Assembly: GCA_038065955.1 (NCBI GenBank)
Contig: JBBTPY010000001.1
Location: 92,061 to 156,060 of the forward strand
From: Patescibacteria group bacterium
GTDB lineage: Bacteria; Patescibacteriota; Minisyncoccia; UBA6257; UBA9933
Direction: 5' to 3'
DNA length: 64,000 nt
Positions within the stretch are counted from its first letter, which is position 1, and the number at the start of each line of letters is the position of its first letter. Made by a program: the position numbers and the translations under genes. A model generated the notes under the pieces. The model was not told where the DNA came from. It worked only from the letters and a program-made list of their open reading frames with translations, and did no database searches. This document shows positions 4,364 through 43,390 of the stretch, in pieces.

Positions 4364-4424
4364 TTTTTAAAATTTTATAATTTTTAATTGATAATTTCAA
4401 GATTTTTATTTATAATAATTTTAT

Positions 4425-4495
4425 CGGGATGGAGTATGACGGCAGTACGCCTGTTTTGGGAACAGGTAGACCGAGTTCGACTCTCGGCATCCCGA
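4425..4495 (+). tRNA. tRNA-Pro (TGG)
   Basis: CGGGATGGAGTATGACGGCAGTACGCCTGTTTTGGGAACAGGTAGACCGAGTTCGACTCTCGGCATCCCGA; anticodon stem CCTGT/ACAGG, loop TTTGGGA. Confidence 0.7.
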
Positions 4496-4506
4496 CAAAA
4501 AAATTA

Positions 4507-15495: not shown

Positions 15496-15547
15496 CTGCT
15501 GATTTTTATTTGGTTGGACTAACCGGTATTCGCCCAGCGCTTTTTTG

Positions 15548-15618
15548 TCGGGCCAGGGCGAATCGAACGCCCACTATACCCACCCCAAGGGTACGGACTA
15601 CCACTATCCGATGGCCCG
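15548..15618 (-). tRNA. tRNA-Pro (GGG)
   Basis: Revcomp CGGGCCATCGGATAGTGGTAGTCCGTACCCTTGGGGTGGGTATAGTGGGCGTTCGATTCGCCCTGGCCCGA; anticodon loop TTGGGGT. Confidence 0.7.
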
Positions 15619-17998: not shown

Positions 17999-18005
17999 TT
18001 TTATG

Positions 18006-18077
18006 CGTCCCCACAAGGAATCGAACCTTGATCTTGAGTTCCGCAAACTCACACTCTATCCATTGAGCTATGGGGAC
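18006..18077 (-). tRNA. tRNA-Arg (GCG inferred)
   Basis: Revcomp GTCCCCATAGCTCAATGGATAGAGTGTGAGTTTGCGGAACTCAAGATCAAGGTTCGATTCCTTGTGGGGACG; anticodon stem TGAGT/ACTCA, loop TTGCGGA. Confidence 0.65.
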
Positions 18078-18082
18078 ATTTT

Positions 18083-18601
18083 CTAAAATCTTATCAATTT
18101 TAACAAAACATCGCTCATTGAAATTTTAATCTCCTCTCGCGGCAAAAATTTCAAAAGCGATTCGCTGATTTTTAATTCATCTTCGGCGAAAATATTAATC
18201 TTTAAATACGGCGCAAATTTTGATTTAAGCCTTAAAACCAATTCTTTATATTCCTCGTTAACCGGATGAATGTCAAAACAGTCAATTTCTTTAAATGAAT
18301 AAAACTTTTCGTCCGCTTTCTTGCCGGCTTCCCCGTCGGGAAATTTAATTAATATGCCGTCACCGTCTATCTTAAATTCCCAAACAGCCGGAAAACGATT
18401 AGCGAAAGAAAATACCACCGCTTCGGCAATTACCACAAAAATCGCAAATAAAAAATTCTTCTGCCATAAAGCCAGTATCAATAAAATTGCGGCAATAATC
18501 AAGCTCAGCCAATACCAAGAAACATCCTTGACGGTATATTCAAATTCCGGCGCCCGCCAGACGAACGGCTCAACTTGTTTTTTAATATTTTTATTCGCCA
18601 T
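18083..18601 (-). CDS. Hypothetical membrane protein (172 aa)
   Basis: Two N-terminal TM helices; no recognisable motif; the start codon abuts the tRNA-Ser 3' end. Confidence 0.5.
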   Translation of the reverse strand: MANKNIKKQVEPFVWRAPEFEYTVKDVSWYWLSLIIAAILLILALWQKNFLFAIFVVIAEAVVFSFANRFPAVWEFKIDGDGILIKFPDGEAGKKADEKFYSFKEIDCFDIHPVNEEYKELVLRLKSKFAPYLKINIFAEDELKISESLLKFLPREEIKISMSDVLLKLIRF

Positions 18602-18602
18602 G

Positions 18603-18684
18603 CGGAGGGTAGAGGAGTCGAACCTCTAAGGGCTTGCGCCCGCCGCTTTTCAAGAGCGGTGCCATGCCATTAGGCGAACCCTCC
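18603..18684 (-). tRNA. tRNA-Ser (TGA), type II
   Basis: Revcomp GGAGGGTTCGCCTAATGGCATGGCACCGCTCTTGAAAAGCGGCGGGCGCAAGCCCTTAGAGGTTCGACTCCTCTACCCTCCG; long variable arm, anticodon loop CTTGAAA. Confidence 0.75.
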
Positions 18685-18721
18685 ATACTAATATTAATGT
18701 ATATTATATAATAATTTTTCG

Positions 18722-18766
18722 AAAATTGGCAAAAAAAATATGGGGAAGCAGATATCTGCTTCCCCA
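18722..18766 (-). terminator. Rho-independent terminator of the 75-aa Cys-rich peptide gene
   Basis: Perfect palindrome ggggaagcagatatctgcttcccc followed on the minus strand by atatttttttt. Confidence 0.7.
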
Positions 18767-18889
18767 TAGAGAGGAGGAATGAAGGAATGGATAACCTTCA
18801 TTACTTTGGGGGGCTCTCGAGCCCACAAGCGTAAATCTCGAGAAAGCTTTACTTACGCTTATGGGGGTTAGCCACCCCACAAAGATTCA

Positions 18890-19117
18890 TTATCGTAAAA
18901 GTTCATTTTTACAATTACGATTTGCCTTAAGGCATGAAAACTTAGGTTTTGATTTGCAATCCTTTCTTTCAAGACCGCACTCCCCAATTTTGTTTATGTT
19001 TTTGATTTTTTGCTGAATCATAGTTGCTGTCGCGGCTATAAAAACGAGCTCTTTTCCATCACAAAATCCACTACGAATTCCCTCATTTATAAAATTAGCC
19101 ATATTGTTAAAATCCAT
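18890..19117 (-). CDS. Small Cys-rich protein (75 aa), hypothetical
   Basis: MDFNNMANFINEGIRSGFCDGKELVFIAATATMIQQKIKNINKIGECGLERKDCKSKPKFSCLKANRNCKNELLR; SD AAAGGAG 7 nt upstream; own terminator; 5 Cys in the C-terminal 30 aa. Confidence 0.5.
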   Translation of the reverse strand: MDFNNMANFINEGIRSGFCDGKELVFIAATATMIQQKIKNINKIGECGLERKDCKSKPKFSCLKANRNCKNELLR

Positions 19118-19302
19118 AACAGTCTCCTTTCAGATACAAAAACAAAAAAGGTTATTAAAGAAAAAACTATTCCCTCCTCAATTTAGTTAAGCAAATCCAT
19201 TCATCCATTCATATTTATCACCGCCTCCTTCCTTTTAAAATTATTTAAATGACCTATTAATATATTAGGCAGATTTTCGAAAAAGTCAACCCCTATCAAT
19301 TT

Positions 19303-19374
19303 TGGACCCGAGCGGGATCGAACCGCTGATCTCCTCATTGCAAATGAGGCATTCTACCACTGAACTACGGGCCC
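19303..19374 (-). tRNA. tRNA-Ala (TGC)
   Basis: Revcomp GGGCCCGTAGTTCAGTGGTAGAATGCCTCATTTGCAATGAGGAGATCAGCGGTTCGATCCCGCTCGGGTCCA; G3.U70 Ala identity pair. Confidence 0.8.
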
Positions 19375-19463
19375 GATTATTTTGGACTCGGCGAGAACCC
19401 AGCACAACAGCAAAACTGTGTGTACGGGGCGCGTTGAACTCGTGTCTCCATCCATCACCATTC

Positions 19464-19537
19464 TGGTGGACCCACCGGGAATTGAACCCGAACCTCGGCA
19501 ATGCGAATGCCGCGTAATGCCGTTTTACTATGGGCCC
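19464..19537 (-). tRNA. tRNA-Ala (CGC)
   Basis: Revcomp GGGCCCATAGTAAAACGGCATTACGCGGCATTCGCATTGCCGAGGTTCGGGTTCAATTCCCGGTGGGTCCACCA; G3.U70, CCA encoded. Confidence 0.65.
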
Positions 19538-19551
19538 ACCGCAAAGGTGAA

Positions 19552-19590
19552 GGACGAATGCGACGTATTGCCAACTATACTACAAGCCCG
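19552..19590 (-). pseudogene. Truncated tRNA 5' half (acceptor plus D-arm only) between tRNA-Pro(CGG) and tRNA-Ala(CGC)
   Basis: Revcomp GGGCTTGTAGTATAGTTGGCAATACGTCGCATTCGTCC has a canonical acceptor/D-arm but no anticodon, T-arm or 3' acceptor partner before the next tRNA begins. Confidence 0.45.
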
Positions 19591-19602
19591 TTTATCGCTT
19601 TG

Positions 19603-19674
19603 TCGGGCCGCCGAGAATCGAACTCGGTCTCTACGCACCCGAAGCGCATGTACTACCGGTATACTACGGCCCGA
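19603..19674 (-). tRNA. tRNA-Pro (CGG)
   Basis: Revcomp CGGGCCGTAGTATACCGGTAGTACATGCGCTTCGGGTGCGTAGAGACCGAGTTCGATTCTCGGCGGCCCGA; flanked by inverted repeat aaagcgat that extends the acceptor helix by about 10 bp. Confidence 0.7.
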
Positions 19675-21368: not shown

Positions 21369-21440
21369 GCCCTTGTAGTGAAATGGATATCACGACAGGC
21401 TTCGAACCTGTTATTGGGGGTTCGAATCCCTCCAAGGGCA
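21369..21440 (+). tRNA. tRNA-Arg (TCG inferred)
   Basis: GCCCTTGTAGTGAAATGGATATCACGACAGGCTTCGAACCTGTTATTGGGGGTTCGAATCCCTCCAAGGGCA; anticodon loop CTTCGAA. Confidence 0.65.
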
Positions 21441-21449
21441 CATAAAAAG

Positions 21450-21522
21450 GCATCCCTAGCTCAATTGGCAGAGCAAATCCCTCTTAAGGATGAGGTTCTG
21501 GGTTCGACTCCCAGGGGATGCA
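21450..21522 (+). tRNA. tRNA-Lys (CTT)
   Basis: GCATCCCTAGCTCAATTGGCAGAGCAAATCCCTCTTAAGGATGAGGTTCTGGGTTCGACTCCCAGGGGATGCA. Confidence 0.75.
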
Positions 21523-21533
21523 CATAAAATTTT

Positions 21534-21608
21534 GCGGGTATCGTATAGTGGCCATTATGCGACCTTGCCAAGGTCGAGATAGGGGTTCGATTCCCCTTAC
21601 CCGCTCCA
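21534..21608 (+). tRNA. tRNA-Gly (GCC), CCA encoded
   Basis: GCGGGTATCGTATAGTGGCCATTATGCGACCTTGCCAAGGTCGAGATAGGGGTTCGATTCCCCTTACCCGCTCCA. Confidence 0.8.
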
Positions 21609-27730: not shown

Positions 27731-27988
27731 TTAATTCTTATATTTAAATATTCCTATTAAAACAAATAAAGACGAAATATTACCTAAGGCGTAAGAATAT
27801 AAAATCGGGAAATTTCCGATATTTATGCCATAAATAACCCAAATTATTCCTCCAATAAAAAATAGCGTGTAAGTAATTAATGAAACATCTCGCGCGCTTT
27901 TTGTTTTAAAAATTTTATACGCTTGAGGGAAACTAGCCAAACTCATCGCAATGCCGGATATTAAAACTAAATACTCTAAAATTTTCAT
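27731..27988 (-). CDS. SemiSWEET / PQ-loop family small sugar transporter (85 aa, 3 TM)
   Basis: FPQAYKIFKTKSARDVSL PQ-loop motif with three predicted TM helices. Confidence 0.6.
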   Translation of the reverse strand: MKILEYLVLISGIAMSLASFPQAYKIFKTKSARDVSLITYTLFFIGGIIWVIYGINIGNFPILYSYALGNISSLFVLIGIFKYKN

Positions 27989-30417
27989 TTTTTTTCTTTT
28001 TGATAAACTTTCTGCGTTGTTTTAATAATCGTATCCGAATTCAAAGAAATGCTGTTAATCCCCTGTCCCACCAAAAATTCGGCGAATCCTTCTATATCCG
28101 ACGGCGCTTGACCGCAAATTCCGATGTATTTGCCTTTTTCTTTGCATTTTTTGATAACTTCGGAAATCAATTTTTTTACTGATTCGTCGTTTTCATTAGT
28201 AATGCCGCGAATCATTTCATTGCCGTCACGGTCAATGCCGACAGTTAACTGCGTCAAATCGTTTGAACCAATAGACATTCCGTCAAAAATTTCCAAAAAT
28301 TCATCGGCTAAAATGACATTTGAAGGAATTTCACACATGACATATACTTTGACTTTTGACATTTGACTTTTGACATTTGACTCTAAAAACAAACCGTTTT
28401 TTTTCATAATTTCCAAAACTTTTTTGCCTTCTTCCGGCGTCCGGCAAAACGGCACCATTACTTCCACATTATCCAAGCCCATCTCCTCGCGGACTTTTTT
28501 AACGGCTTTAAGTTCCAAAATAAACGCCGCCGCGAAATTCGGATGATAATATCTTGAAGCGCCGCGCCAGCCGATCATCGGATTTTCCTCCGACGGCTCG
28601 TACAATTCCCCGCCGATAAGCGTTCTGTATTCATTTGTTTTAAAATCAGAAAATCTTAAAATTACCGGTTTCGGATAAAAAGCCGCGCCAATTTTCGCGA
28701 TACCGTAAGCGAGCTTATCAACATAAAATTGAGTTTTGTCTTTGTAGCCAATAATTTTTTTATCAATCGCGTTTTTAATTTTCGCCGGCATTTTTTTATA
28801 ATTTATCAAAGCATTTGGGTGAATCCCGATATCTCCGGCGATAATAAATTCTTCTCTCGCCAATCCCACGCCGTCATTCGGCAAAAAAGATTTTTCAAAA
28901 GCGGTTTCCGGCGTGGCAATATTAAGCATTATTTTAGTTTTCGGCCGCGACAATTTTTTAATATCGTGTTCAATTATTTTGAATTTTAAAGCGCCATCAT
29001 AAACAAAACCATCGCTGCCGGTCGTATCAACCGTAATCATTTGGCCAGTTTTTATTTTTCGAGTGGCGCTTTCCGAACCGACAATACAAGGAATGCCAAG
29101 TTCGCGGCTTACTATTGCCGCATGAGATGTTCGTCCTCCTTTGTCCGTTACAATCGCCGAAGCGATTTTCATAATCGGTTCCCAATCCGGGTCTGTCATA
29201 TCAGTAATCAAAATTTCACCGACCTTAAATTGTCCGATATTTTTAGCGCCTAAAATTACACGCGCCTTACCCGTTGCGATTTTACTTCCAACCGATGCCC
29301 CTTTGACTAAAACATTTAACCTTTGACCTTTAACATCTGACAAAATATATTCTTTTATTTTGGAGAAATCGCGGCTGGCATGTATAGTTTCCGGTCTTGC
29401 CTGGACAATATATAACTCACCCGTTTTCCCATCCTTTGCCCACTCCATATCCATTGGCGTCCATTTGCCGTTTTTTGTCGAATAATGCTCTTCTATTAAA
29501 ATCCCCCATTTTGCCAGTTTTAAAATTTCGTCATCGCTTAAAACAAAACTTTCTTTTTCTTTTTGAGAAGTATTAATTATTTTCGTATTTTTAACGGAAA
29601 CGCCTTTGCCTTCCGAATAAATCATTTTTTGATTTTTAACGCCGAGTTTTTTATCAATAATCGCATTAGTTTTTTTGAAAACTAAAAATTCATCCGGCGT
29701 CACTTCTCCTTGAACAATCATTTCGCCAAGTCCCCATGAACCGTTTATCAAAACCGAATCCTTAAAACCGGATTCCGTGTCCAAAGTAAACATTACGCCG
29801 GAACAGCTCAAATCCGAGCGAATCATTTTTTGAACGCCGACCGATAAAGCGACTTTAAAATGGTCAAATCCTTTATCGACGCGATAAGAAACGGCGCGGT
29901 CGGTAAAAAGCGAAGCCATCGCCGATTTTACCGCTTTCAAAACTTCTTTGTCTCCGCGGATATTCAAATAAGTTTCATGCTCGCCGGCAAAAGAAGCGCC
30001 GGGCAAATCCTCGGCCGTGGCGCTTGAACGTACGGCAACATCAACGTTTTTGCCGTATTCTTTCTCTGTTTGCCGATACGCCTTAACAATTTCTTGTTTT
30101 AAATCATCCGGAAATTCCGCTTTTTTTATCGTTTCGCGGATAAGTTTTCCACGCCTTGATAAATCTTTTAAATTTTTTGTGTTTAAACCGCTAAGCGCCT
30201 CTTTTATAAATTTTTTCAATCTCATTTCTTCTAAAAAATAGCGATAAGCTTCCGCAGTAACAACAAACCCGCCCGGAATCTTTACTCCCTGCCTGCCGGC
30301 AGGCAGGCTTTTCGGCGTTAAATTTTGAATCATTTCGCCGAGAGAGGCGTTCTTTCCGCCCACCTCGGCAATGTCTTTTATGCCGACTTCGTTTAATTTT
30401 TTGATGAAAATTTTCAT
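27985..30417 (-). CDS. ppsA: Phosphoenolpyruvate synthase (pyruvate, water dikinase)
   Basis: GGKNASLGEM ATP-grasp N-terminus, central phosphohistidine domain, C-terminal PEP-utilising domain; start at MKIFIKKLNEVG; in-frame inserts VKSQMSKVKVYVM (octamer repeats 28336-28384) and a 22-bp perfect palindrome (30287-30308). Confidence 0.9.
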   Translation of the reverse strand: MKIFIKKLNEVGIKDIAEVGGKNASLGEMIQNLTPKSLPAGRQGVKIPGGFVVTAEAYRYFLEEMRLKKFIKEALSGLNTKNLKDLSRRGKLIRETIKKAEFPDDLKQEIVKAYRQTEKEYGKNVDVAVRSSATAEDLPGASFAGEHETYLNIRGDKEVLKAVKSAMASLFTDRAVSYRVDKGFDHFKVALSVGVQKMIRSDLSCSGVMFTLDTESGFKDSVLINGSWGLGEMIVQGEVTPDEFLVFKKTNAIIDKKLGVKNQKMIYSEGKGVSVKNTKIINTSQKEKESFVLSDDEILKLAKWGILIEEHYSTKNGKWTPMDMEWAKDGKTGELYIVQARPETIHASRDFSKIKEYILSDVKGQRLNVLVKGASVGSKIATGKARVILGAKNIGQFKVGEILITDMTDPDWEPIMKIASAIVTDKGGRTSHAAIVSRELGIPCIVGSESATRKIKTGQMITVDTTGSDGFVYDGALKFKIIEHDIKKLSRPKTKIMLNIATPETAFEKSFLPNDGVGLAREEFIIAGDIGIHPNALINYKKMPAKIKNAIDKKIIGYKDKTQFYVDKLAYGIAKIGAAFYPKPVILRFSDFKTNEYRTLIGGELYEPSEENPMIGWRGASRYYHPNFAAAFILELKAVKKVREEMGLDNVEVMVPFCRTPEEGKKVLEIMKKNGLFLESNVKSQMSKVKVYVMCEIPSNVILADEFLEIFDGMSIGSNDLTQLTVGIDRDGNEMIRGITNENDESVKKLISEVIKKCKEKGKYIGICGQAPSDIEGFAEFLVGQGINSISLNSDTIIKTTQKVYQKEKK

Positions 30418-30471
30418 ATTTAAAAAATAATTTTTAATAAAGCGATAAAAGCTATTAACGACCAAATAAAA

Positions 30472-30722: not shown

Positions 30723-31286
30723 TTATATCTTCCCGACTAAATCCAACCCGGGTTTTAAAGTTTTTCCGCCGGGCTTCCAGCTCGCCGGGCAAACCAGGCC
30801 TTTGTTGTCCCTGACGAATTTTGCCGCCTGAAGTTTTCTTAAAATCTCGGCCGCGCTTCTGCCGATACTGTTGTCGTGAATCTCGCAGGCTTTTAAAACC
30901 CCGTCCGGGTCAATAATAAAACTCCCCCGCAACGACAATCCCTCTTCTTCAATATAAGTACCGAATTCTCTACAAAGTTTTCCGGTCGGGTCGGCCGCCA
31001 TCGGATATTTGATTTTCTTGATGGCCGGCGAAGTGTCATGCCACGCCTTATGAGCAAAAACCGTATCCGTGCTTACGCTCATTATTTCCGCGCCGCTTTT
31101 TTTAAATTCTTCGTAATGTTCCGCCGCTTCTTCCAATTCCGTCGGACAAATAAAAGTGAAATCCGCCGGATAAAACAGCAATACAAGCCATTTGCCGCGG
31201 TAATTTGATAGTTTTACTTTTTTGATTTCCTCGTTTTGAAAAGTTTCCAATTCAAAATCTGAAATCGTTTGGCCAATTTTAACCAT
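30723..31286 (-). CDS. Peroxiredoxin (Prx/AhpC-like)
   Basis: 187 aa; FTFICPTEL peroxidatic Cys motif. Confidence 0.85.
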   Translation of the reverse strand: MVKIGQTISDFELETFQNEEIKKVKLSNYRGKWLVLLFYPADFTFICPTELEEAAEHYEEFKKSGAEIMSVSTDTVFAHKAWHDTSPAIKKIKYPMAADPTGKLCREFGTYIEEEGLSLRGSFIIDPDGVLKACEIHDNSIGRSAAEILRKLQAAKFVRDNKGLVCPASWKPGGKTLKPGLDLVGKI

Positions 31287-31323: not shown

Positions 31324-32913
31324 TTATTTTTTATTTTTCTTTTTCAGTTTCGGTTTTGACTTTGATTTCGGTTTCTTTTTATTGGACATAATTATTTTAT
31401 AATTTTTAAAACGACCTTTTATTAGTTCATTATTTGATATTTTTAATATTACCATCAAATCCGCCACATTGAAACATTTTTGCTCGGCATATATCAAGTC
31501 GCCGGTTTTTTTGAAGAAATTGAAAGAGTCGTGGTTTTTTAAAAATTCTTCCGGTTTTAATTTTAATTTTTTCGCTTTTTCCAAAGTCAAAGAATCGCCG
31601 ATAGCTCCGGCGGCCTCGGTATTGTCGCGAGCGTCTGAAGTAAAAGAAATAAAAACTGAATCCTGATACAAAGCATTTAACATTTGACATTTGACTAGCG
31701 CACCGAGCACTGCTTCCTGATTGCGCCCGCCTTTGCCCTGAACCGCGCCGAAGGGCTTGCCCTGAACCGCGCCGAAGGGCTTGCCCTGAACCGCGCCGAA
31801 GGGCTTGCCCTGAACCGCGCCGAAGGGCTTGCCCAATTCATAATTCATAATTCCTGCCTGCCCCGTAGCGAACTTGTTCTGCTTCGGGGATTCGTGATTC
31901 AAATTTACAGTCGTTTCTCCGGCAGCGATTAAAACTTCATTTGTCTTAATTTTCGCTATCATTGATGATAGCGCCGCGCTTGCTTCTCCTTCCAGCGCTA
32001 AGGAGTGAATTTTTGATTTAAAACCCAATTCTTCGGCTTTATTCATCATTGCCATAACCGCGTCCTGATTGCAGACAAATAAAATATTGTCAACTTTCTT
32101 AAAATATTTTTGCTCTTTAGGCGTTTCGCTTAAATGAAATTTTCCCGCGTCAATTCCGTATTTTTTCAAAATATTTTCGGCATCAATCTTAGTCGTTTTA
32201 TCAAAGACCGTCGGGCCGGAAGCAACCATTGATAAATCATTGCCGCAAACATCGGAAACAATCAAAGAAACGACTTTTGCCGGATAAGCTTCCATAGTCA
32301 GCCCGCCGCCCTTAAATCTCGCTCCTGACAAATGCTTGCGAACGGCATTAAGCTCTGAAATGGCGGCTCCTGATTTGGTTAATTCTTTAATCGCCGAAAT
32401 TGATTCATTAAGCTCGGATTCGGAAGCGCAAGCCAAAGCCGAACCGCCGCCGCAAATAAAAGTAATGAGTAAATCGTCTTTATTCAAACTTTTCGCCAGT
32501 TTAATGATTTCTTGAGTGGCAATAATATTTTGTTCAGAGGGGAAAGGATGAGTTCCCTTAAAACATCTGACATTTGACTTCTGACCTTTGACAATAAAAA
32601 TATCCAGCGCGATGCCGCGAACCAATTTTTCACCTAAAATTTCAGCCAAATTTGAAACCGCCAAAGCGGAACCCTTCCCGACACCGACAATGAAAATCCG
32701 CTTAAAATCGTTTAAATTAATTTTAAGCGAATTTTTGGCGCTACCGCTCGCGCCAACATATTCAATAATTTCTAAAACGCCGTTTTTTATCTTAATCCGG
32801 TTTTTAATGATTTTTTCAATCTCAATCGCCTCATAACCAGCCTCTGCGATTTGAAGCGTCTTTTTTCTTAAATCATTTTTCGCCAGATTTTTTAAATTAG
32901 TGATTATTGACAT
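31324..32913 (-). CDS. Glycerate 2-kinase, MOFRL family (GckA/TtuD-like)
   Basis: GVGKGSALAV, GGGSAL, GETTV and GGRNQE motifs; four in-frame tandem copies of GKPFGAVQ from a 24-bp GC-rich repeat (31733-31833); Lys-rich C-terminal tail. Confidence 0.75.
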   Translation of the reverse strand: MSIITNLKNLAKNDLRKKTLQIAEAGYEAIEIEKIIKNRIKIKNGVLEIIEYVGASGSAKNSLKINLNDFKRIFIVGVGKGSALAVSNLAEILGEKLVRGIALDIFIVKGQKSNVRCFKGTHPFPSEQNIIATQEIIKLAKSLNKDDLLITFICGGGSALACASESELNESISAIKELTKSGAAISELNAVRKHLSGARFKGGGLTMEAYPAKVVSLIVSDVCGNDLSMVASGPTVFDKTTKIDAENILKKYGIDAGKFHLSETPKEQKYFKKVDNILFVCNQDAVMAMMNKAEELGFKSKIHSLALEGEASAALSSMIAKIKTNEVLIAAGETTVNLNHESPKQNKFATGQAGIMNYELGKPFGAVQGKPFGAVQGKPFGAVQGKPFGAVQGKGGRNQEAVLGALVKCQMLNALYQDSVFISFTSDARDNTEAAGAIGDSLTLEKAKKLKLKPEEFLKNHDSFNFFKKTGDLIYAEQKCFNVADLMVILKISNNELIKGRFKNYKIIMSNKKKPKSKSKPKLKKKNKK

Positions 32914-33093: not shown

Positions 33094-33417
33094 TTATCCA
33101 GTTTCTTCTAAAAATATCTTTTTTTCAAAGCCGCCGCGCTCTTGTTTTCTTTCTTCTTTTGTTTTCAAAATTTGATTTTTATTCAAATCAAAAGCTTTTT
33201 CCATGGCTTCAATCACTTCTAAAATATCGCCGATTTCTTTTAATAAATCATTGTTATTTCCCGTTAAAACCACCTCCTGAACTTCTTCAACTAATTTCTT
33301 TTTTAATTCTTTTTTATATTCTTCGTTGTCCAGTATCCTTATTTTCGGCTTTTCGCCATCATTTTCAATAATTTCTGGAATTTTATCTCTTACTAATTTA
33401 TTGTAAATTTTCACCAT
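33094..33417 (-). CDS. MazG-like nucleotide pyrophosphohydrolase (small all-alpha NTP-PPase)
   Basis: 107 aa; KLVRDKIPEII ... EEVQEV...EIGDILEVIEAM pattern of MazG/PRA-PH-like house-cleaning enzymes. Confidence 0.6.
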   Translation of the reverse strand: MVKIYNKLVRDKIPEIIENDGEKPKIRILDNEEYKKELKKKLVEEVQEVVLTGNNNDLLKEIGDILEVIEAMEKAFDLNKNQILKTKEERKQERGGFEKKIFLEETG

Positions 33418-33475: not shown

Positions 33476-36400
33476 TTAAATCTTCTTTATGCCGAGCCAA
33501 ATTTCTGAATCGTCAATTTTCGTTTCCGATTCAACGGTAAATTTATCTGTTTTCGCGAATTCAATTTTTTTGGCGCCCACTTCGGTTTTAAGATTCTCCA
33601 TATTCTTGCTTATCAATTTTTGAAAATAATCGTCGGCGTGAATATTTAAAATAATCACGTCTTTTGGAATAAAATCGGCTTCTTTGCGCAAATCTTGAAT
33701 GACGCGCGTCAATTCGCGCAATTGTCCTTCAGCTTTTAATTCCGGCGTAATATTTATGTCTAATTCAACATCGCTCGCGATATTTTTGTCAAAAATAATT
33801 TCTTTGACATTCACCTCATCTTTAATCAATTCCAATAATTCTTTATTATTCTTGATACCTAATACTTGATACTTGATACTTATTTTTGCGAGCGGCTGCC
33901 GGACTTTTATGCCCGATTTCTGCCGCGCGTCTAAGCCAAGCGAACAAATTTTCCGCGTTTCCGCCATCATCTCAATCAATTTTTTATCAATTTTCGGTTT
34001 ACCCGCCGAAGTTTTAACGAAGGCGGGCCATTTTTCTAAATGAACTGATTCTATATTTCTAACACCTGACACCTGACACTTGACACTTTGATACAACGTT
34101 TCGCTGATAAACGGCGCAAAAGGCGCGCTCGCTTTTGAAAATTCAGATAAAACAAATCGAGTTGTCGCAATGGCATTTTGCTTATCTCTGCCTTCTGTTT
34201 TAAATCTTTCACGCGAGCGCCTGATATACCAAGTGGATAAATCGTCAATAAATTCTCCAAGCGGCCGGCTGGCTTTATCAAGTTCGTAATTATCCATCGC
34301 CTCGGACACTTCTTTAATTAGTTGTTTAAGCCGCGTCAAAATCCAAATATCCAAAATATTTTTACCTGACACCTGACGCTTGACACTTAACACCTTCTTA
34401 TCCGCGTATAAATCGTAAAATTGATAAACATTCCAAAGACGCATAATTATTTTTTTATAAACCTCATCAACGCCTTTTTCGGAAAAATTCAAATCTTCTC
34501 CGCGCACCGCCGGCGATGACAAAAGATAAAGCCGCAATGCGTCGGCGCCGTATTTTCCAACAATCTCCATCGGGTCCGGATAATTTTTTAGACGCTTGCT
34601 CATCTTTTGGCCGTCTTCGGCAAGAATAATGCCGTTAACAATCACATTTTTATAAGCCGGCTTATTAAACAGCCCCGTTGAAAGAACTAAAAGCGTATAA
34701 AACCAGCCGCGCGTCTGGTCAATGCCCTCGGCGATAAATTCAGCTGGAAATCCGAATTTTTGATTATTCTCAAACGGATAATGCGCCTGTCCGTAAGGCA
34801 TTGAACCGGATTCAAACCAACAGTCAAAAACTTCCGGGACTCGACGCATTTCTCCGCCGCAGGAACAAGTAAATTTCATTTCATCAATATACGGCCGATG
34901 CAAATCAAGCTCATAATTTTGATTATGAGGAAGCGGAATAAAATCCAATTTTTTTACTTCTCCGGTTTTTATAAAATCATCTGATTTATTTATTCGTGTG
35001 TGCCCATTCGTTAAGGCTTTCGCATACTTAATTTCCACGGCTTTTTTCGCATCGGCGCCGACAGTGGCGGCAAAAAACAACCAAATCGGATACTCGTGAG
35101 AAACGATTAAAATATTTTTATTTTGATATTTATTTTCAATTTCATACAAAAATTCCGCGACCCGATTTTTTAATTCCGTAAGATTTTCGCCCTCCGGCGG
35201 CGTTTTATAAAATTTCTCTTCAAGCGGCGCGAAATTCCGGTATTCTTCAATTTTTTTCCCGTCAATAATTCCAGTATTGACCTCTCTTAACCGTTTGTCA
35301 AAAATTATTTTCCCTTCCCAACCGATTGCCTTTACGGCAAGCTCGGCGGTTTCTTTGGCGCGGCGAAAATCAGAGACGAAAATAAAATCAATTTTTTCTT
35401 TTTTTATTTTTTTTGCCACCGCTAAAACCTGTTTTTTCCCTTTTTCCGTAAGAGAAAATTTATCTTTATTTTTAACGCTTGTATTAACGACGCCTAACGT
35501 GTTATTTTCTCCTTCGCCGTGGCGCATCATAAAATATCTGTTGCCGGACTTTTCCGTTTTTCTTTTTATATCATCTAAAGAGCCGATTATTTCCAAATTA
35601 TCACATCTCTCGCATTTCCAAGCCGGCAAAGGCGCTCCCCAAAATCTTGAACGCGAAATCGCCCAATCGCGCGCCCCTTCCAGCCATTTGCCGAAACGGC
35701 CGTCCCTGATGTGTTTTGGTATCCAGTTTATTTTTTTATTATTGGCAATCAGTTTATTTTTTATCTCTTCAACTTTAACGAACCAAGAACTTGCCGCGTA
35801 ATTTAAAAGCGGCGTGTCGCAACGCCAACAATGCGGATAAGAATGGATAATTTTTTCTTTTTTGAAAAGTTTGTTTTCCTTGGCGAGCCATTTAATTATT
35901 TCAATGTCAGTCGCTTGCGAATTTTCTTTCGGTTTTACGGACAATCCGACGAAATCTTTTACTTCCGACTTAAATTTTCCGTCTATCCCAACGTGCTGAA
36001 TAAACGGCAAATTTTCTTTTTTCGCCAAATTCATATCGTCTTCGCCAAAAGCCGGCGCAATATGAACTATACCGGTGCCCTCATTAGTTGTTACAAAATC
36101 ATCGGCGTAAATTTTCCAGCCGTTTTCACAATTTTTTAAATTTTTATCTTCTGCGTAATAATTAAAAAGCGGTTTGTATTTTTTACCGATTAAATCTTTA
36201 CCTTTAATAGGCAATCCAATAAGAGTAGTTTCTCCTTCAAATGGAAATGTTTTTACTAAAAGATTTTCGGCAACAATAAAAAATTCGTTTTTTATTTTTA
36301 CTTTTCCATATTTAATATCCGGATTTACCGCAAGCGCCACGTTCCCCGGTAGCGTCCAAGGAGTTGTCGTCCAAGCTAAAACAAAAGTGTTTGGTTCATC

Positions 36401-37045
36401 TTCTAATTCAAATTTAGCGACAACCGAAATATCGGTTATATCTTTATATCCCTGCGTCACTTCAAAATTCGCCAAAGTTGTTTCGCATCGCGGGCAAAGA
36501 TGCATCGGCTTATATCCCTCATAAATAAGCCCTTTATTAAAAAGCGACTTAAAAACCCACCAGACGGATTCCGTATAAGTCCAATCCATCGTTTTATAAT
36601 CGTTTTCCATGTCAATCCAGCGGCCGACTCGGGGAATTATTTTTTTCCATTCGTCCCTGTATTCCAAAACCGCGCCTTCGGCGGCTTCGTTGAATTTTTC
36701 AATGCCGATTCGCTCTATGTCTTTTTTCGTTTTCAATCCGAGTTTTTTCTCTATTTCATTTTCAATCGGCAAGCCGTGGCAATCCCAGCCCCAACGGCGA
36801 GGAACTTTTTTACCTTTCATCGCCTGATATCTCGGCACCGCGTCTTTTATGATTGACGCTAAAATATGGCCGTAATGCGGCAAGCCGGTGGCAAAAGGCG
36901 GCCCGTCATAAAAAACAAAACCGCCTTTCGGTTTTTTACCGGCGGGCTTTTCAATGGATTTTTCGAAAATCTTATTTTTTTGCCAAAATTTTAAAATTTC
37001 TTCTTCTAATTTATTGATATTAAATTTTTCCCTATTTTCGGACAT
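33476..37045 (-). CDS. ileS: Isoleucyl-tRNA synthetase with an embedded histidine-phosphatase (PGM-like) domain
   Basis: HIGH-class motifs (PPFATGLPHYGH, KMSKRLKNYPDP) and CWRCDTP/CERCD zinc knuckles; about 230 extra residues between CERCDNLEIIGS and DLHRPYIDE include RYFMMRHGEGENN (RHGE catalytic signature) and LIVSHEYPI; also carries octamer-repeat inserts. Confidence 0.9.
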   Translation of the reverse strand: MSENREKFNINKLEEEILKFWQKNKIFEKSIEKPAGKKPKGGFVFYDGPPFATGLPHYGHILASIIKDAVPRYQAMKGKKVPRRWGWDCHGLPIENEIEKKLGLKTKKDIERIGIEKFNEAAEGAVLEYRDEWKKIIPRVGRWIDMENDYKTMDWTYTESVWWVFKSLFNKGLIYEGYKPMHLCPRCETTLANFEVTQGYKDITDISVVAKFELEDEPNTFVLAWTTTPWTLPGNVALAVNPDIKYGKVKIKNEFFIVAENLLVKTFPFEGETTLIGLPIKGKDLIGKKYKPLFNYYAEDKNLKNCENGWKIYADDFVTTNEGTGIVHIAPAFGEDDMNLAKKENLPFIQHVGIDGKFKSEVKDFVGLSVKPKENSQATDIEIIKWLAKENKLFKKEKIIHSYPHCWRCDTPLLNYAASSWFVKVEEIKNKLIANNKKINWIPKHIRDGRFGKWLEGARDWAISRSRFWGAPLPAWKCERCDNLEIIGSLDDIKRKTEKSGNRYFMMRHGEGENNTLGVVNTSVKNKDKFSLTEKGKKQVLAVAKKIKKEKIDFIFVSDFRRAKETAELAVKAIGWEGKIIFDKRLREVNTGIIDGKKIEEYRNFAPLEEKFYKTPPEGENLTELKNRVAEFLYEIENKYQNKNILIVSHEYPIWLFFAATVGADAKKAVEIKYAKALTNGHTRINKSDDFIKTGEVKKLDFIPLPHNQNYELDLHRPYIDEMKFTCSCGGEMRRVPEVFDCWFESGSMPYGQAHYPFENNQKFGFPAEFIAEGIDQTRGWFYTLLVLSTGLFNKPAYKNVIVNGIILAEDGQKMSKRLKNYPDPMEIVGKYGADALRLYLLSSPAVRGEDLNFSEKGVDEVYKKIIMRLWNVYQFYDLYADKKVLSVKRQVSGKNILDIWILTRLKQLIKEVSEAMDNYELDKASRPLGEFIDDLSTWYIRRSRERFKTEGRDKQNAIATTRFVLSEFSKASAPFAPFISETLYQSVKCQVSGVRNIESVHLEKWPAFVKTSAGKPKIDKKLIEMMAETRKICSLGLDARQKSGIKVRQPLAKISIKYQVLGIKNNKELLELIKDEVNVKEIIFDKNIASDVELDINITPELKAEGQLRELTRVIQDLRKEADFIPKDVIILNIHADDYFQKLISKNMENLKTEVGAKKIEFAKTDKFTVESETKIDDSEIWLGIKKI

Positions 37046-37150: not shown

Positions 37151-38227
37151 TCAGTAATAATATCTGCCGTTCGGCTTACCTGAAGACAAATGGATTAGTA
37201 TTGTTTCCTCGTATTTTTTCACAATATCGGAAAATTCGGAGAAGTCCGTCGTTTCGAAATGCGCCAGCGCTTCATCTATATCGCCGGTTATAATATCCGG
37301 CTCTCCTGTAAAAATTGTATTTTTACAATCTTGACTTCGTCCCATTTGAGGAAAAACAAAAGAAATATCATTAAATCCCGGAATATCATAAGTACGATAT
37401 CGAACGACATTGCACGAACCATTTCCTTTAAATTTCGTCTTTTCCGCGTTAAACCGCGAAATAAAATCCAAATAATTATTGGAAAAATAGAAAGGCGGAC
37501 TTGCGCTTGTCGTGTATGTCCCCTGCATATACGGCTTGCCGTCGTTATCTTTTGCCAACGCAAGCAAATAAACTTCTTCTTTACACCCGACATATACAAA
37601 CGCGCCATGGTCAAGCTCTTTTACGACTTTTTCGTATTTTTCTAACAACTTCCAACGATTTGTTTTAAAAAACCATCTGTTTTTCCACCGAGGAACTTGA
37701 TACGCGGTCGGCCAACTGTCTAAAAACGGAGATATAACGCTGTCAAAATATTTCGGACGCGTTATTTCTCTAAGGCGCGCAGAAATAATCTGATCGCCCG
37801 CAATAATCTCAATAGACTGCATCGGCGTAACTTTGCCGTCAACGCTTTCCGTGGCAAGCGTTATAAAAACGTCTCTTCTCGACGAAGATGGAAGATAAAT
37901 TCCGAATTCTTCGTCCATTTCAAAATCAAGACAATGCGTGCCGTATATGTTGCCCTGATATCTTTTCCATTCGCGATTTTGCCTTTCTTCTATTTTCCGC
38001 CTTTCTTCTTTTGTGCGCGCAAGAAACCAGTTAAATGTCGAAACATATGAATTTCTATTTACTCTGTGACTATTACAATCTAAAACCTCGAAATCGTGGC
38101 CTTCATACTTCAAAAGACAAAATTTATTGCCATTTTGAAGAAGAATATTGCGTCTTTGAGAGCGCTCTACCTGACTTTTAACATAATTGTCAAAATTTTG
38201 AAAAACATCTTTCTGATAATTTTTCAT
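37151..38227 (-). CDS. Hypothetical protein (358 aa), no recognisable domain
   Basis: Clean ORF, co-oriented with and 12 bp downstream of an 86-aa ORF; lies between ileS and argS. Confidence 0.5.
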   Translation of the reverse strand: MKNYQKDVFQNFDNYVKSQVERSQRRNILLQNGNKFCLLKYEGHDFEVLDCNSHRVNRNSYVSTFNWFLARTKEERRKIEERQNREWKRYQGNIYGTHCLDFEMDEEFGIYLPSSSRRDVFITLATESVDGKVTPMQSIEIIAGDQIISARLREITRPKYFDSVISPFLDSWPTAYQVPRWKNRWFFKTNRWKLLEKYEKVVKELDHGAFVYVGCKEEVYLLALAKDNDGKPYMQGTYTTSASPPFYFSNNYLDFISRFNAEKTKFKGNGSCNVVRYRTYDIPGFNDISFVFPQMGRSQDCKNTIFTGEPDIITGDIDEALAHFETTDFSEFSDIVKKYEETILIHLSSGKPNGRYYY

Positions 38228-38239: not shown

Positions 38240-38500
38240 TCACGCCAAATCCGGCCTTGTAGAATTCAAAAGTATTCTCCGACCGTCTGTATAAATTGTT
38301 ATCGTTCTGTCGCAAAATGGACAATTCTTTTTGAAACTTTTTATTTTTTTCTTCCCTGCCGCTCCGGCCGCCACTTCTCTTAAATAATCTGTTGCCATTT
38401 TTTCAACATCGCCTCCGCTAATAGAAATCAATGCGTCATACTCTTTTTCCGTAATCTCAATTGGAAACTTTACGATTTTATTGTCTGTTTTTTCAATCAT
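38240..38500 (-). CDS. Hypothetical small protein (86 aa) with CPFC motif
   Basis: SD AAGGAGGG upstream; first gene of a 2-gene cassette preceded by a 38-bp palindrome. Confidence 0.5.
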   Translation of the reverse strand: MIEKTDNKIVKFPIEITEKEYDALISISGGDVEKMATDYLREVAAGAAGKKKIKSFKKNCPFCDRTITIYTDGRRILLNSTRPDLA

Positions 38501-38691: not shown

Positions 38692-39105
38692 TTAAAATCT
38701 GGATTTCACCAACTCTACCACCAAATCAACTTCTTCCGGCGAAGTTTTAATAATCAATCCCGCCTCGTCTTCCGACGGCAAAAAATCTCGACCGACAATC
38801 TCGCCGCTTTTCATCCAAATAAGCTCTAAATCCAAATGCGTGTTTTTATTCCAAAAAATCAGCTTTTGAACCGGTTCAAAATAAAAAATCATTCCATCGG
38901 CGCCTTTCAATTCCGTAATTCCCGAAAGCCCGCGCGTTTTTTCAAGCGCGGTTTTTGCCATAAACAAAACATAATCGCGTCCATCTATGTTTAAAACAAC
39001 TTTTTCGGAATTATCCGTTAAATTTGCCTTGCCGATAAATAAAAAAATAATTCCGGCAAAAATGCCTAAAATCATCAATATAATTTTTTTGAAATTTAAC
39101 TTCAT
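38692..39105 (-). CDS. DUF192 family protein (COG1430)
   Basis: 137 aa; N-terminal TM plus L..TA....RG.......AD.GMIF... pattern of DUF192. Confidence 0.6.
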   Translation of the reverse strand: MKLNFKKIILMILGIFAGIIFLFIGKANLTDNSEKVVLNIDGRDYVLFMAKTALEKTRGLSGITELKGADGMIFYFEPVQKLIFWNKNTHLDLELIWMKSGEIVGRDFLPSEDEAGLIIKTSPEEVDLVVELVKSRF

Positions 39106-40754
39106 TACATTTTTTTCGGCATACTTACGCCGAGCAGCCCGAATAAATTTTTAAAAATAACTTGCGTCGCTTTTATTAATTCTAAACGCGCCGCCATTAA
39201 ATTCTCTTCTGCGCCCATAATTCTTTCTTTTTCGTAAAAATTATGAAAAGTTTTCGCTAAATCCAAAGAATATCGCGCCAAAATCTGCGGATTATAATTA
39301 TTCGCCGCCTCTTTTATCACTTCCGAAAACCGCGCCAACTGTCTTATTAAATTTAAGTCCTCGTTAGTGCTTAATAAATCAAATTTAATCCTTGACTTTT
39401 GATATTTGACATTTGACTTCCGTAAAATACCACCGCATCTGACCGCCGCATATTGGACATAATAAACCGGATTTTTCATTGAACGCTCTTTCGCTAAAGA
39501 TAAATCAAAATTCATATGCGTATCCGATGAACTCATTAAAAAGAAAAACCTGGTCGCGTCCAAGCCGACTTCCTTGATTAAATCATCAAGCGTAATAAAC
39601 TCACCATTTCTCTTTGACATCTTCACTTCTTTGCCCTCTTTAATTAAGCGAATTAATTGAGTAATAATTACTTTAAATTTTCCGTCACCGTTTTCAAAAA
39701 TACTGAGCGCTTTTAACCCGGCGCGAAGCCGCGGCTCATAGCCGTGATGGTCCGCTCCCCAAATATCAATAACTTGAGTAAATTTCCGAGTTTTAAATTT
39801 ATTTAAATGATAAGCCATGTCCGGCAGAAAATAAGTCGGCTCGCCGCTCGCCCGCACCAACACTCTATCCTCGTTGTCGCCGAAATCTTTAGTCTTCATC
39901 CATAAAGCGCCGCCTTTTTCATAAACCAAATTTTTGCGCTTCAATTCGTCAAGTAATTTTTCAACCGCGCCGTTCTTATACAAACTCTCCTCGCTGAACC
40001 ATTTGTCAAAATTTATTTTCAAACCTTTTTCAATAAATTTTTTGTTGTCTTTTTGAATTTCCCGCGCCAATAAATTACCCGCTTTACCGTAATCCGTAAT
40101 ATTTTTAAGTTTTTCGCCTAAATTCTTAATTATTAATTCTAAATTTTTTGTTTTATAAATATTGCCTTCGCCAAGCGCTGTTTTGCCGAGTTCTTTTATT
40201 TGCGTGCTCGCTTTGGCATCATTGACATAATATTCTTTTACTACTTTATAACCGGCGAATTTCAAAATGTTCGCCAAAACATCGCCGAAAAATCCTCCCC
40301 GGCCATTGCCGATTGTTAACTGCCCGGTGGGATTGGCGGAAATAAACTCTATCTGAACTTTTGACATCTGACCTCTGACAGCTGACTTGCCGTAATTTTG
40401 TTTTTTCTTCAAAATCTCTTTTAATTCGTCTTGTAAAACTTTTTCCGAAATCCAAAAATTGATAAATCCCGGTGTCGCCACTTCAATTTTTTCAAAAAAA
40501 TCCCTTGCTATCATTGATGATAGCGCGGTTTTTATTTCTTCGGCTATTTGCATGGGATTCTTTCCGCGCAATTCCGCGTTTAAATCCGCGTTCTTCCGCG
40601 CTAATGTGGCGAGTTTTAACGCCACATTAGAAGAATAATGCCCAAATTGCTCATTCTCCGGAACGAAAACTTCTATTTCTATTTTTTCTTTAATAACTTT
40701 TTTAAGATAATCGAAAATTTTTGACTTAATCATTGTTTTCATTATAATTAACAT
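39105..40754 (-). CDS. argS: Arginyl-tRNA synthetase
   Basis: 549 aa; class I HIGH region and C-terminal DALR anticodon-binding domain; octamer-repeat inserts at 39392-39420 and 40359-40390. Confidence 0.9.
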   Translation of the reverse strand: MLIIMKTMIKSKIFDYLKKVIKEKIEIEVFVPENEQFGHYSSNVALKLATLARKNADLNAELRGKNPMQIAEEIKTALSSMIARDFFEKIEVATPGFINFWISEKVLQDELKEILKKKQNYGKSAVRGQMSKVQIEFISANPTGQLTIGNGRGGFFGDVLANILKFAGYKVVKEYYVNDAKASTQIKELGKTALGEGNIYKTKNLELIIKNLGEKLKNITDYGKAGNLLAREIQKDNKKFIEKGLKINFDKWFSEESLYKNGAVEKLLDELKRKNLVYEKGGALWMKTKDFGDNEDRVLVRASGEPTYFLPDMAYHLNKFKTRKFTQVIDIWGADHHGYEPRLRAGLKALSIFENGDGKFKVIITQLIRLIKEGKEVKMSKRNGEFITLDDLIKEVGLDATRFFFLMSSSDTHMNFDLSLAKERSMKNPVYYVQYAAVRCGGILRKSNVKYQKSRIKFDLLSTNEDLNLIRQLARFSEVIKEAANNYNPQILARYSLDLAKTFHNFYEKERIMGAEENLMAARLELIKATQVIFKNLFGLLGVSMPKKM

Positions 40755-42590: not shown

Positions 42591-43022
42591 ATGATTATCG
42601 CCGCCAATAAACGAGCGTATTTTGACTACCAAATTCTTGAAACTTTTGAGGCCGGGATTGAATTAAAAGGATTTGAAGTTAAATCAATAAAAAACGGCAG
42701 GATAAACCTCGCCGGTTCTTACGCCGTCATCCGCGATAATCAAGCGTGGCTTCTTAACGCCGATATTCCGGCTTACCAACCGAAGAACGCGCCGAAAAAT
42801 TACGATTCCAAAAGAACGCGGCGGCTTTTACTGAAAAAATTGGAAATAAAAAACTTAATCGGCCGCATTCATGAAAAAGGCTTGACTTTGACTCCTTTAA
42901 AAGTTTATACTAAAAATCACAGAATAAAGATGGAAATCGGGTTAGGGAAAAGCAGAAAAAAAGCGGACAAAAGAGAATTAATAAAGAAAAGGGATGTTAA
43001 ACGAGAAATCAGACGGGAATGA
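42591..43022 (+). CDS. smpB: SsrA-binding protein
   Basis: 143 aa; N-terminal NKRAYFDY...E.GIEL.G.EVKS and basic C-terminal tail. Confidence 0.9.
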   Translation: MIIAANKRAYFDYQILETFEAGIELKGFEVKSIKNGRINLAGSYAVIRDNQAWLLNADIPAYQPKNAPKNYDSKRTRRLLLKKLEIKNLIGRIHEKGLTLTPLKVYTKNHRIKMEIGLGKSRKKADKRELIKKRDVKREIRRE

Positions 43023-43029
43023 CAGGAAT

Positions 43030-43390
43030 CGATGACAGCACTTTTATAAAATCGCAAGCCGAGGACGATTCGTCACCTCGTCAATCATCGAATCAAAATC
43101 ATATCTGCCAAAAACAGATTAGCCAATTATTTGGCTCCCGCTTTCGCTTTCGCCTAAGCGGCATCCGCTTTTAATCGCTTGAATTAAAAGACCGGGTGTA
43201 ATATTTTAAGCTATGGTTGATGTTCCGCCGAAAACATCTGCTGAAAATTATCGGCAAAGAGTTTTGAAGATTTCGTTAAGTTTTAACTTCTAAATTCTAT
43301 ATCCTAACTTGACTAAGCTCGTAGAAATTTTATAAATTTATTGTCAGACGGGGCTTCAATGCCCCCATTTCCACACAAATTTAAAAATTA
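43030..43390 (+). ncRNA. ssrA: Candidate tmRNA (ssrA) region immediately downstream of smpB; speculative
   Basis: No protein ORF. A short frame GCC AAU UAU UUG GCU CCC GCU UUC GCU UUC GCC UAA (43122-43157) = ANYLAPAFAFA*, tag-like and preceded by an A-rich tract with UAG as in known tmRNAs. Stable hairpins after the stop; 3' GGGGCUUCAAUGCCCC T-arm-like hairpin. The 5'/3' acceptor pairing could not be confirmed. Confidence 0.3.

Follow-up and report, generated by a model that had tools for sequence, protein, structure and literature searches.

A histidine phosphatase domain nested in the type-2 isoleucyl-tRNA synthetase of Patescibacteria

Results and Discussion

The ileS gene and its product

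We analysed a DNA stretch of 64,000 nt from a Patescibacteria group bacterium (assembly GCA_038065955.1, contig JBBTPY010000001.1, positions 92,061 to 156,060), which is called the window in the following. The Patescibacteria are ultra-small bacteria that have not been cultured. Its minus strand carries an ileS gene encoding an isoleucyl-tRNA synthetase (IleRS) in which a complete histidine phosphatase domain is nested in the CP3 subdomain. The gene is one uninterrupted reading frame, and its GC content is even along its length. The parts of the gene and of its product are given below in window coordinates, together with the corresponding amino acids (aa).

33476..37045, minus strand: complete open reading frame (ORF) ileS::His_Phos, 1189 aa plus stop; type-2 (eukaryote-like) IleRS with nested phosphatase
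35564..37045, minus strand: N-terminal part of IleRS, aa 1-494, with the first Rossmann half, CP core, CP1 editing, CP2 and the first CP3 half
36866-36877, minus strand: HYGH (HIGH-type motif), aa 57-60, in the N-terminal part
aa 225-231, minus strand: WTTTPWT of the CP1 editing domain
35603..35614, minus strand: first half of the CP3 zinc knuckle, Cys478-x-x-Cys481
35543..35563, minus strand: N-terminal linker RKTEKSG, aa 495-501, joining IGSLDDIK of CP3 to the phosphatase
34946..35542, minus strand: histidine phosphatase (branch 1) domain, aa 502-700
35513..35524, minus strand: RHGE, aa 508-511, with R508 of the phosphate pocket and H509, the predicted phospho-accepting nucleophile
35501..35503, minus strand: Asn515
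35360..35362, minus strand: Arg562, the second phosphate-pocket arginine, in the motif S-x-x-x-R-A-x-E-T-A
35282..35284, minus strand: Glu588, predicted general acid/base, in the motif RLRE
35096..35098, minus strand: His650, second catalytic histidine, in the motif IVSHE
34907..34945, minus strand: fusion-specific tail DFIPLPHNQNYEL, aa 701-713
33476..34906, minus strand: C-terminal part of IleRS, aa 714-1189, with DLHRPYIDE, the second knuckle half, the second Rossmann half, the anticodon-binding domain and the DUF5915 tRNA-binding domain
34859-34867, minus strand: second half of the CP3 zinc knuckle, Cys727/Cys729, in the C-terminal part
34592-34606, minus strand: KMSKR, aa 814-818, in the second half of the Rossmann fold

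The protein scores 893 bits with the NCBIfam model TIGR00392 ileS (cut-off 621 bits), and its Pfam domains follow each other as two tRNA-synt_1 stretches with His_Phos_1 between them, then Anticodon_1 and DUF5915 (PF19302). Structures of type-2 enzymes (IleRS2, yeast, Candida, human and Thermus) are matched at E~1e-219 to 1e-232, those of type-1 IleRS only at 1e-71 to 1e-86. The window protein is a type-2 (eukaryote-like) IleRS with a DUF5915-type C-terminal domain instead of the bacterial zinc-binding domain. Type-2 enzymes are the mupirocin-resistant class; with the models of the mupirocin-resistance IleRS MupA and MupB the window protein reached 779 and 752 bits, below the cut-off of 1900. 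Its full-length AlphaFold model (pLDDT 85.2, pTM 0.79) corresponds to solved type-2 IleRS (IleRS2, yeast, Thermus) with TM-scores of 0.78-0.86, normalised to the target, and IleRS2 is ranked first by Foldseek.

Thus, the homology to the type-2 enzymes of Priestia megaterium (IleRS2, 8C8U), Thermus thermophilus (1ILE) and yeast/Candida (8WND, 6LDK) extends over the full length (E~1e-220) and includes the HIGH-type and KMSKS motifs, CP1 editing, the anticodon-binding domain and the DUF5915 C-terminal domain, and the zinc knuckle of CP3 is as in the Thermus enzyme. The difference lies in CP3, which has only a short loop in the known type-2 IleRS, whereas in the window protein a second enzyme of ~210 residues is nested there. 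This extra domain is absent from every solved IleRS structure we compared. For questions of conservation we used an alignment of 81 fusions, consisting of the window protein and 80 fusion IleRS from species-representative genomes (insert identity 35-56%). Among the sequences covering each motif, KMSK is kept in 80 of 81, TTTPWT in 78 of 78 and GTG.VH..D in 79 of 79. The motifs for catalysis and editing are intact, and judged by them the IleRS host should be fully functional.

The insertion site in CP3

In the alignment to human cytoplasmic IleRS (9w01_B), residues 494 and 714 of the window protein correspond to residues 489 and 498, so that a net insertion of ~210 residues replaces a loop of ~8 residues. 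Insert-free IleRS of Patescibacteria have 5-13 residues between 'IGS..EL' and 'DLHRPYID', with five in those of the L097 type. The insert occupies aa ~495-713 (window ~34907-35563) and is placed at the tip of the variable CP3 subdomain, the limits of which were taken from Candida IleRS (residues 473-534; PMC7191050) and from the alignment to solved IleRS structures. A preliminary description of this DNA, made from its letters alone, had proposed a histidine phosphatase insert between the zinc-knuckle region and DLHRPYIDE, and the halves CxxC and CxC indeed flank it. All motifs quoted there were found: CERCDNLEIIGS at aa 478-489, RYFMMRHGEGENN at aa 503-515 (35501-35539), LIVSHEYPI at aa 646-654 (35084-35110), DLHRPYIDE at aa 714-722, FTCSCGG at aa 725-731 and KMSKRL at aa 814-819. 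Its measures needed correction. The extra segment is there, with ~210 net residues instead of ~230; the residue estimate of ~520-760 is to be replaced by ~495-713; and the range 34700-35500 was slightly off, with the RHG codons (35516-35524) lying just past its end.

CP3 of IleRS is peripheral and structurally variable; it binds zinc in Thermus, and the zinc motif is missing in Candida and Staphylococcus aureus (PMC7191050). The four cysteines flanking the insert are distributed in a nearly all-or-none manner: all four are present in 37 of the 81 fusions, three at one locus (L079) and none in the rest. Since they are missing in most fusion IleRS, zinc binding by CP3 is dispensable even with a nested domain.

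The segments that connect the insert to CP3 have a different record. The N-terminal linker was modelled with a pLDDT of ~88, and the C-terminal tail follows the pattern 'F.PLPHN.NYEL' over 12-13 residues, with P706 in 79, H707 in 71 and N708 in 74 of the 81 fusions. Its conservation is about equal to that of the catalytic motifs, and according to our alignments neither the insert-free IleRS nor the free-standing phosphatases have it.

The insert is a complete histidine phosphatase

Pfam assigns aa 505-674 to His_Phos_1 (PF00300) with E=3.7e-32 and 112 bits (gathering cut-off 21.7 bits), covering profile positions 2-171 of 194 and lying between the tRNA-synt_1 segments. The segment is therefore a histidine phosphatase domain inserted in IleRS, as had been proposed, and not a normal IleRS subdomain. 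Free-standing phosphatases of ~190 aa from Patescibacteria are 40-49% identical to it over the full length, begin with 'N-x-YF-x-RHGE' and end with 'IKTGEVRKL', which are also the limits of the insert. By this end-to-end equivalence the insert is a whole phosphatase protein and not a fragment. When it was modelled alone, pLDDT was 90.3 and pTM 0.88, so that the insert is predicted to fold as a domain independent of the IleRS core. As a peculiarity of the window protein, ~12 extra residues (the ALTNGHTRINKSDD region, aa 677-687, window ~35066-35024) are located in a surface loop of the phosphatase when compared to the other fusions, and this loop is the one part of the insert to which both models give low confidence.

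Foldseek placed the phosphoserine phosphatase PspA (4IJ5/4IJ6) at the top for the insert model (probability 1.00, TM-score 0.69-0.73, root mean square deviation 2.1 A), and the other neighbours, GpgP, PhoE, TIGAR and CobC, are likewise small-cap phosphatases, with true mutases ranking lower. The model had 295 PDB matches at E<=0.001, and all 50 of those listed belong to the histidine phosphatase family. PspA/iPSP1 of Hydrogenobacter (4IJ5), PhoE of Geobacillus (1H2E/1EBB), mycobacterial GpgP Rv2419c, CobC and TIGAR share the fold (TM-score ~0.7, 2.1-3 A) and the catalytic residues R-H-G...N, R, E and H with the insert at 23-29% identity. They differ from it in being free-standing or terminal domains with known substrates, while the clade of the insert is linked to ileS and has the PLPHN tail when fused.

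Profile, fold and the set of RHG, Arg, Glu and His all place the insert in branch 1 of the histidine phosphatases. The RHG motif and the second histidine are positioned as in this family, in accord with the preliminary description, and so are three residues not listed there, R562, E588 and Asn515. R508, H509, R562 and H650 are present in all 81 fusions, and at position 588 there are 79 proteins with Glu and two with Asp. Asn515, which by its spacing from the RHG arginine we take to correspond to Asn17 in the phosphate pocket of E. coli dPGM, is kept in 79. The invariance of the catalytic residues, while the zinc cysteines of the host are complete in only 37 of the same 81 proteins, is the contrast expected from selection on phosphatase catalysis. 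Judging from these residues, the nested phosphatase is apparently catalytically active as a phosphomonoesterase.

Branch-1 histidine phosphatases use a two-step chemistry via a phospho-histidine intermediate, and this standard mechanism of the superfamily fits all conserved residues of the insert. H509 would attack the phosphorus of a phosphomonoester to give the phospho-histidine intermediate, with R508, R562, H650 and N515 forming the pocket that holds the phosphate. E588 would protonate the leaving group and then activate a water molecule, acting first as general acid and then as base.

It could be argued that only the phosphatase fold has been kept and that catalysis has been lost, with the domain serving a structural or regulatory purpose, such as sensing a ligand or offering tRNA or partner proteins a place to dock. 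The highly conserved linkers and fusion-specific tail, which were modelled with high confidence, suggest a fixed orientation on CP3, and in one fragment (P0009) the second His is replaced by Tyr. However, pseudoenzymes normally lose their catalytic residues, while here the core four are invariant in 81 of 81 divergent fusions, Glu588 and Asn515 are nearly so, and the free-standing relatives retain the same residues. We therefore consider a silent module very unlikely, and the regulatory role mentioned in the preliminary description, if taken as the only one, is unlikely in view of the invariant catalytic residues.

The insert belongs to the histidine phosphatase superfamily but to no characterised subfamily. 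We scored 82 members of the phosphatase clade against NCBIfam models. In all of them the dPGM model of the short archaeal type gave the best similarity, with CobC and PspA coming next, each below threshold: 84 bits compared to 225 for dPGM_arch, 71.6 to 162.9 for CobC (TIGR03162) and 73 to 350 for PspA phosphoserine phosphatase (NF045917), the latter being the closest solved structure. Scores were also under the cut-offs for GpmB (71 vs 261), SixA (TIGR00249; 33.8 vs 74.5) and the dPGM models in general (NF038349, TIGR01258 and PRK families). The earlier label 'PGM-like' is right at the level of the superfamily only. The suggestion of an Ap4A/nucleotide phosphatase found no support, since the nearest characterised relatives (PspA, PhoE, GpgP, CobC, TIGAR) are phosphomonoesterases.

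These similarities bear on the possibility that the nested domain is a housekeeping enzyme (phosphoglycerate mutase/phosphatase or phosphoserine phosphatase) which the cell needs for its activity and which was fused to ileS through chance adjacency. The ranking of the dPGM model and the structural closeness to a phosphoserine phosphatase fit this explanation. Jaffe et al. (2020, PMC7304191) report that several shallow Parcubacteria clades apparently have no phosphoglycerate mutase, possibly because divergent forms escaped notice; when nested in IleRS, such an enzyme could be overlooked. On the other hand, the equivalog scores for dPGM, PspA and CobC are far under the cut-offs, true mutases rank below small-cap phosphatases among the structural neighbours, and chance adjacency leaves unexplained why the tail is conserved to the same degree as the catalytic motifs. 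Taking this together with the gene neighbourhood and the second copies described below, we regard the housekeeping explanation as the main alternative, though a somewhat unlikely one.

There are precedents for each half of the architecture. In the Rv2228c type (RNase H/acid phosphatase, NF005567) a histidine phosphatase is fused to a nucleic-acid enzyme; this is an end-to-end fusion with RNase H, whereas the insert is nested in an aminoacyl-tRNA synthetase (78 bits compared to the NF005567 cut-off of 326). An IleRS with an inserted GNAT domain (NF040702, ileS_w_GNAT) provides a precedent for a foreign catalytic domain in IleRS, but the enzyme is a different one: the window protein reached 316 of the required 1999 bits, and Pfam shows no GNAT domain in it.

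Distribution of the fusion

The window protein is identical to an NCBI entry (P0121) that stems from five contigs and is named 'class I tRNA ligase family protein [Patescibacteria group bacterium]'. Its best 120 full-length database matches (56-100% identity), including Wolfebacteria genomes from 2015 in UniRef, all contain PF00300. HMMER was also run exhaustively against 1.84 billion cluster representatives; of the best 150, 104 contained the insert, so that 104 or more of the clusters formed at 50% identity have the fusion. Furthermore, a scan of species-representative genomes revealed the same fusion in at least 167, nearly all with names of the Parcubacteria/Paceibacteria type and one of them closed. 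Among the complete or near-complete genomes with the fusion are CP060229.1 and an 893-kb contig with P0206. Altogether the architecture is common to more than 200 homologues, and most fusion loci consist of a single uninterrupted ORF of 1100-1290 codons. The preliminary description had called it non-standard; this holds for characterised IleRS, with no solved structure showing it, while in a large clade of Patescibacteria it is the standard.

The even GC content, the identical protein on five contigs and the more than 200 homologues indicate that the fusion in the window is not an assembly artefact. A more general doubt would be that the insert is missing from the mature enzyme, because it is an assembly chimera, a spliced intein-like element or a mobile insertion. 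The conserved His-Asn of the tail (H707-N708) superficially resembles the C-terminus of an intein. However, the same in-frame architecture recurs in hundreds of assemblies made independently of each other and also in one closed genome, and the composition is uniform across the ileS ORF. An intein was rejected: Pfam detects no Hint domain, the predicted fold matches the histidine phosphatases, and H707-N708 is followed by E, D, K or Q, never by Cys, Ser or Thr. The probability that the insert is lost from the mature protein is practically negligible.

Fragment matches to the insert had raised the possibility of a split gene, which we dropped, as 120 of 120 full-length matches are intact fusions. 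At one fusion locus (L001; ENA contig_675, 120 kb) ileS was called as three genes, and the adjacent thymidylate synthase gene (thyA) is also split, which points to frameshift errors in the assembly and not to real gene fission. Errors of this kind account for many database fragments with PF00133 and PF00300. The closest relative in the genome collection (L002, QYPD01000003.1; 56% in the insert) is labelled as a metagenome-assembled genome of a 'Spirochaetia bacterium'; this contig is probably mis-binned Patescibacteria.

In public records both Pfam domains are computed on the fusion, while the name given is only IleRS or 'class I tRNA ligase family protein'. In the full-text literature searched, with subscription-only papers outside it, we found no description of an IleRS-histidine phosphatase fusion. 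A paper on SB-203208 was considered as a precedent and rejected, since it deals with an IleRS-like transferase and separate GNAT enzymes and no inserted domain.

Linkage of the phosphatase to ileS

At two loci on long contigs (L082 and L083) the gene order is argS-phosphatase-ileS-recO, with an insert-free ileS, and at the fusion locus L001 it is argS-ileS::phosphatase-recO. The free-standing upstream phosphatases (P0034 in L082, P0085 in L083) have the same N- and C-terminal limits as the insert and the same partners argS, ileS and recO. They differ by a conserved W-P-E-K loop after RHG, which the inserts do not have, and by the absence of the PLPHN tail.

We extended this comparison to 80 metagenome loci with a phosphatase of this clade, the closest of 587 relatives. 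The phosphatase is nested in ileS at 46 of them (38 complete, eight cut by a contig end). At another 28 it has a reading frame of its own, which directly adjoins or overlaps the beginning of an ileS without insert (~920-980 codons), with gaps of -15 to 295 nt. It lies ~950 nt upstream of ileS at one locus, at five the arrangement was undeterminable, and at none was it found elsewhere. Thus, linkage to ileS was seen at all 75 classifiable loci. An ORF check of the 80 loci and of L082, L083 and L088 was consistent with separate frames; motif patterns had missed several loci. In the 64-kb window there is no second copy of the phosphatase clade.

The synteny of argS and ileS is kept in 118 of 164 related loci. 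The corresponding region of the window and the genes downstream of ileS are as follows.

39105..40754, minus strand: argS, arginyl-tRNA synthetase
38692-39105: DUF192 gene
38240-38500, minus strand: ORF of 86 aa without Pfam match
37151-38227, minus strand: ORF of 358 aa without Pfam match
33094-33417, minus strand: ORF without Pfam match, on the other side of ileS
31324-32913, minus strand: ORF of the glycerate-kinase family
30723-31286, minus strand: peroxiredoxin
27985-30465, minus strand: ORF similar to phosphoenolpyruvate (PEP) synthase/PPDK

The DUF192 gene and the ORFs of 358 and 86 aa break the argS-ileS synteny in the window and may represent a lineage-specific insertion.

The genes for a glycerate-kinase-family protein and a PEP synthase/PPDK-like protein after ileS, in the window and in L002, are a weak pointer to a phosphoglycerate substrate and thus to the housekeeping explanation. 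However, this C3-metabolism cluster was matched only in L002 and partly in L140 among the 164 related loci, and the glycerate-kinase neighbourhood recurs at just one of them. With one to two loci out of 164 it is not conserved, and we rejected it as a clue to the substrate.

Some further features of the window were noted. The glycerate-kinase-family ORF contains a perfect 24-bp tandem repeat of 4.2 copies (31733-31834), which encodes GKPFGAVQ four times in frame between the DUF4147 and MOFRL parts and is recently expanded. A tmRNA is located at 43015-43376 on the plus strand, and 13 tRNA genes are arranged in small clusters (2531-4496, 15547-15618, 18005-19673 and 21369-21608). The tRNA-Pro GGG at 15547-15618 was found by ARAGORN and is not listed at the Rfam gathering threshold.

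Evolution of the nested domain

In a tree of the phosphatase domain, nested and free-standing forms are separated by five state changes in 180 tips, and the free-standing proteins form the tighter group (mean identity 48%, compared to 31% among the nested ones). In a tree of the IleRS core from which the insert had been removed, and in which every insert-free IleRS has an upstream phosphatase (n=21), we counted six changes, compared to ~20 with shuffled labels; the 21 IleRS with upstream phosphatase cluster, 15 of them as one clade. The best reading of these sequence trees is that the adjacent and nested forms would be separated by one or a few transitions, in either direction. Most likely the nested phosphatase was derived from a gene directly upstream of ileS, as found in sister lineages of Patescibacteria. 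The nested domain could have arisen when phosphatase-ileS was duplicated in tandem and two deletions, both in frame, took place afterwards.

Two His_Phos domains are present in five cluster representatives, either in tandem in CP3 or in CP3 and at a site after KMSKS. Second copies at a different site of IleRS are not explained by chance adjacency, which is a further argument against a housekeeping enzyme trapped in ileS. Some relatives combine GNAT and His_Phos, such as P0220 with GNAT in the CP1 region and P0350 with 1859 aa, and in P0285 the phosphatase is followed by an AAA_18 segment resembling P-loop kinases (28.9 bits, just under the cut-off of 29.4). It seems that the IleRS of Patescibacteria is particularly prone to the insertion of enzyme domains. 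Relatives with extra or multiple domains are P0220, P0350, P0285, P0267, P0271, P0357, P0371 and P0385.

A phosphatase activity probably tied to IleRS

We consider it probable that the ileS product is a two-enzyme polypeptide, in which a functional type-2 IleRS and a complete PhoE/PspA-like phosphatase are physically linked for an activity tied to IleRS or to translation. The linkage has been kept or re-created as operon neighbour, as nested domain and as second-site copies, and from this we infer that the activity of the phosphatase is tied to IleRS or translation. The strong constraint on the linker also favours such a role.

Several observations weigh against this interpretation. The profile comparison pointed to no substrate, with no curated NCBIfam subfamily cut-off being reached by any of the 82 clade members. 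The complete linkage at 75 of 75 loci is valid for one phosphatase clade only, the 80 closest of 587 relatives, and could reflect inherited synteny within that clade combined with a neutral fusion. Conserved catalytic residues would also be expected, with or without cooperation with IleRS, if the domain were the only form in which the cell has an essential enzyme. Our trees are neighbour-joining trees on deep divergences and in effect unrooted, and one such tree, of 133 representatives of 50% clusters, scattered the insert-bearing IleRS (27 changes). This last tree is poorly resolved or mixes unrelated insert-free lineages, and we did not rely on it.

It is tempting to speculate that the substrate of the tethered phosphatase is a macromolecule from the aminoacylation cycle and not a metabolite. 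One possibility would be the removal of 3'- or 2'-phosphates from damaged tRNA ends, allowing recharging; another would be to undo an inhibitory phosphorylation of IleRS or of neighbouring translation proteins by a kinase toxin. If so, the synthetase would carry a built-in active site for repair or against toxins. Two findings fit loosely and are no proof: the second copies flank the KMSKS segment, and the AAA_18 segment beside the phosphatase in P0285 is reminiscent of polynucleotide kinase-phosphatase healing enzymes. We give this specific version little credence.

The finding of a phosphatase within IleRS is of interest for several reasons. To our knowledge, the extra domains acquired by aminoacyl-tRNA synthetases are, with few exceptions, appended at a terminus or serve in editing or tRNA binding. 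It is unusual for an entire enzyme of metabolic type, with its catalytic residues conserved, to sit inside the catalytic body of a class I synthetase and to be fixed in so large a radiation of bacteria. It provides a natural example of a neighbouring gene turned into a nested domain, with the operon-neighbour intermediate and repeated re-acquisition at hand. Further, the CP3 loop is a tolerant insertion site, which could be used for the engineering of IleRS. Naming the whole protein as IleRS hides the embedded phosphatase and may contribute to apparent pathway gaps in metabolic reconstructions of Patescibacteria. Last, Patescibacteria would keep an activity of the phosphatase type tied to IleRS, and the fusion offers an experimental route to that activity.

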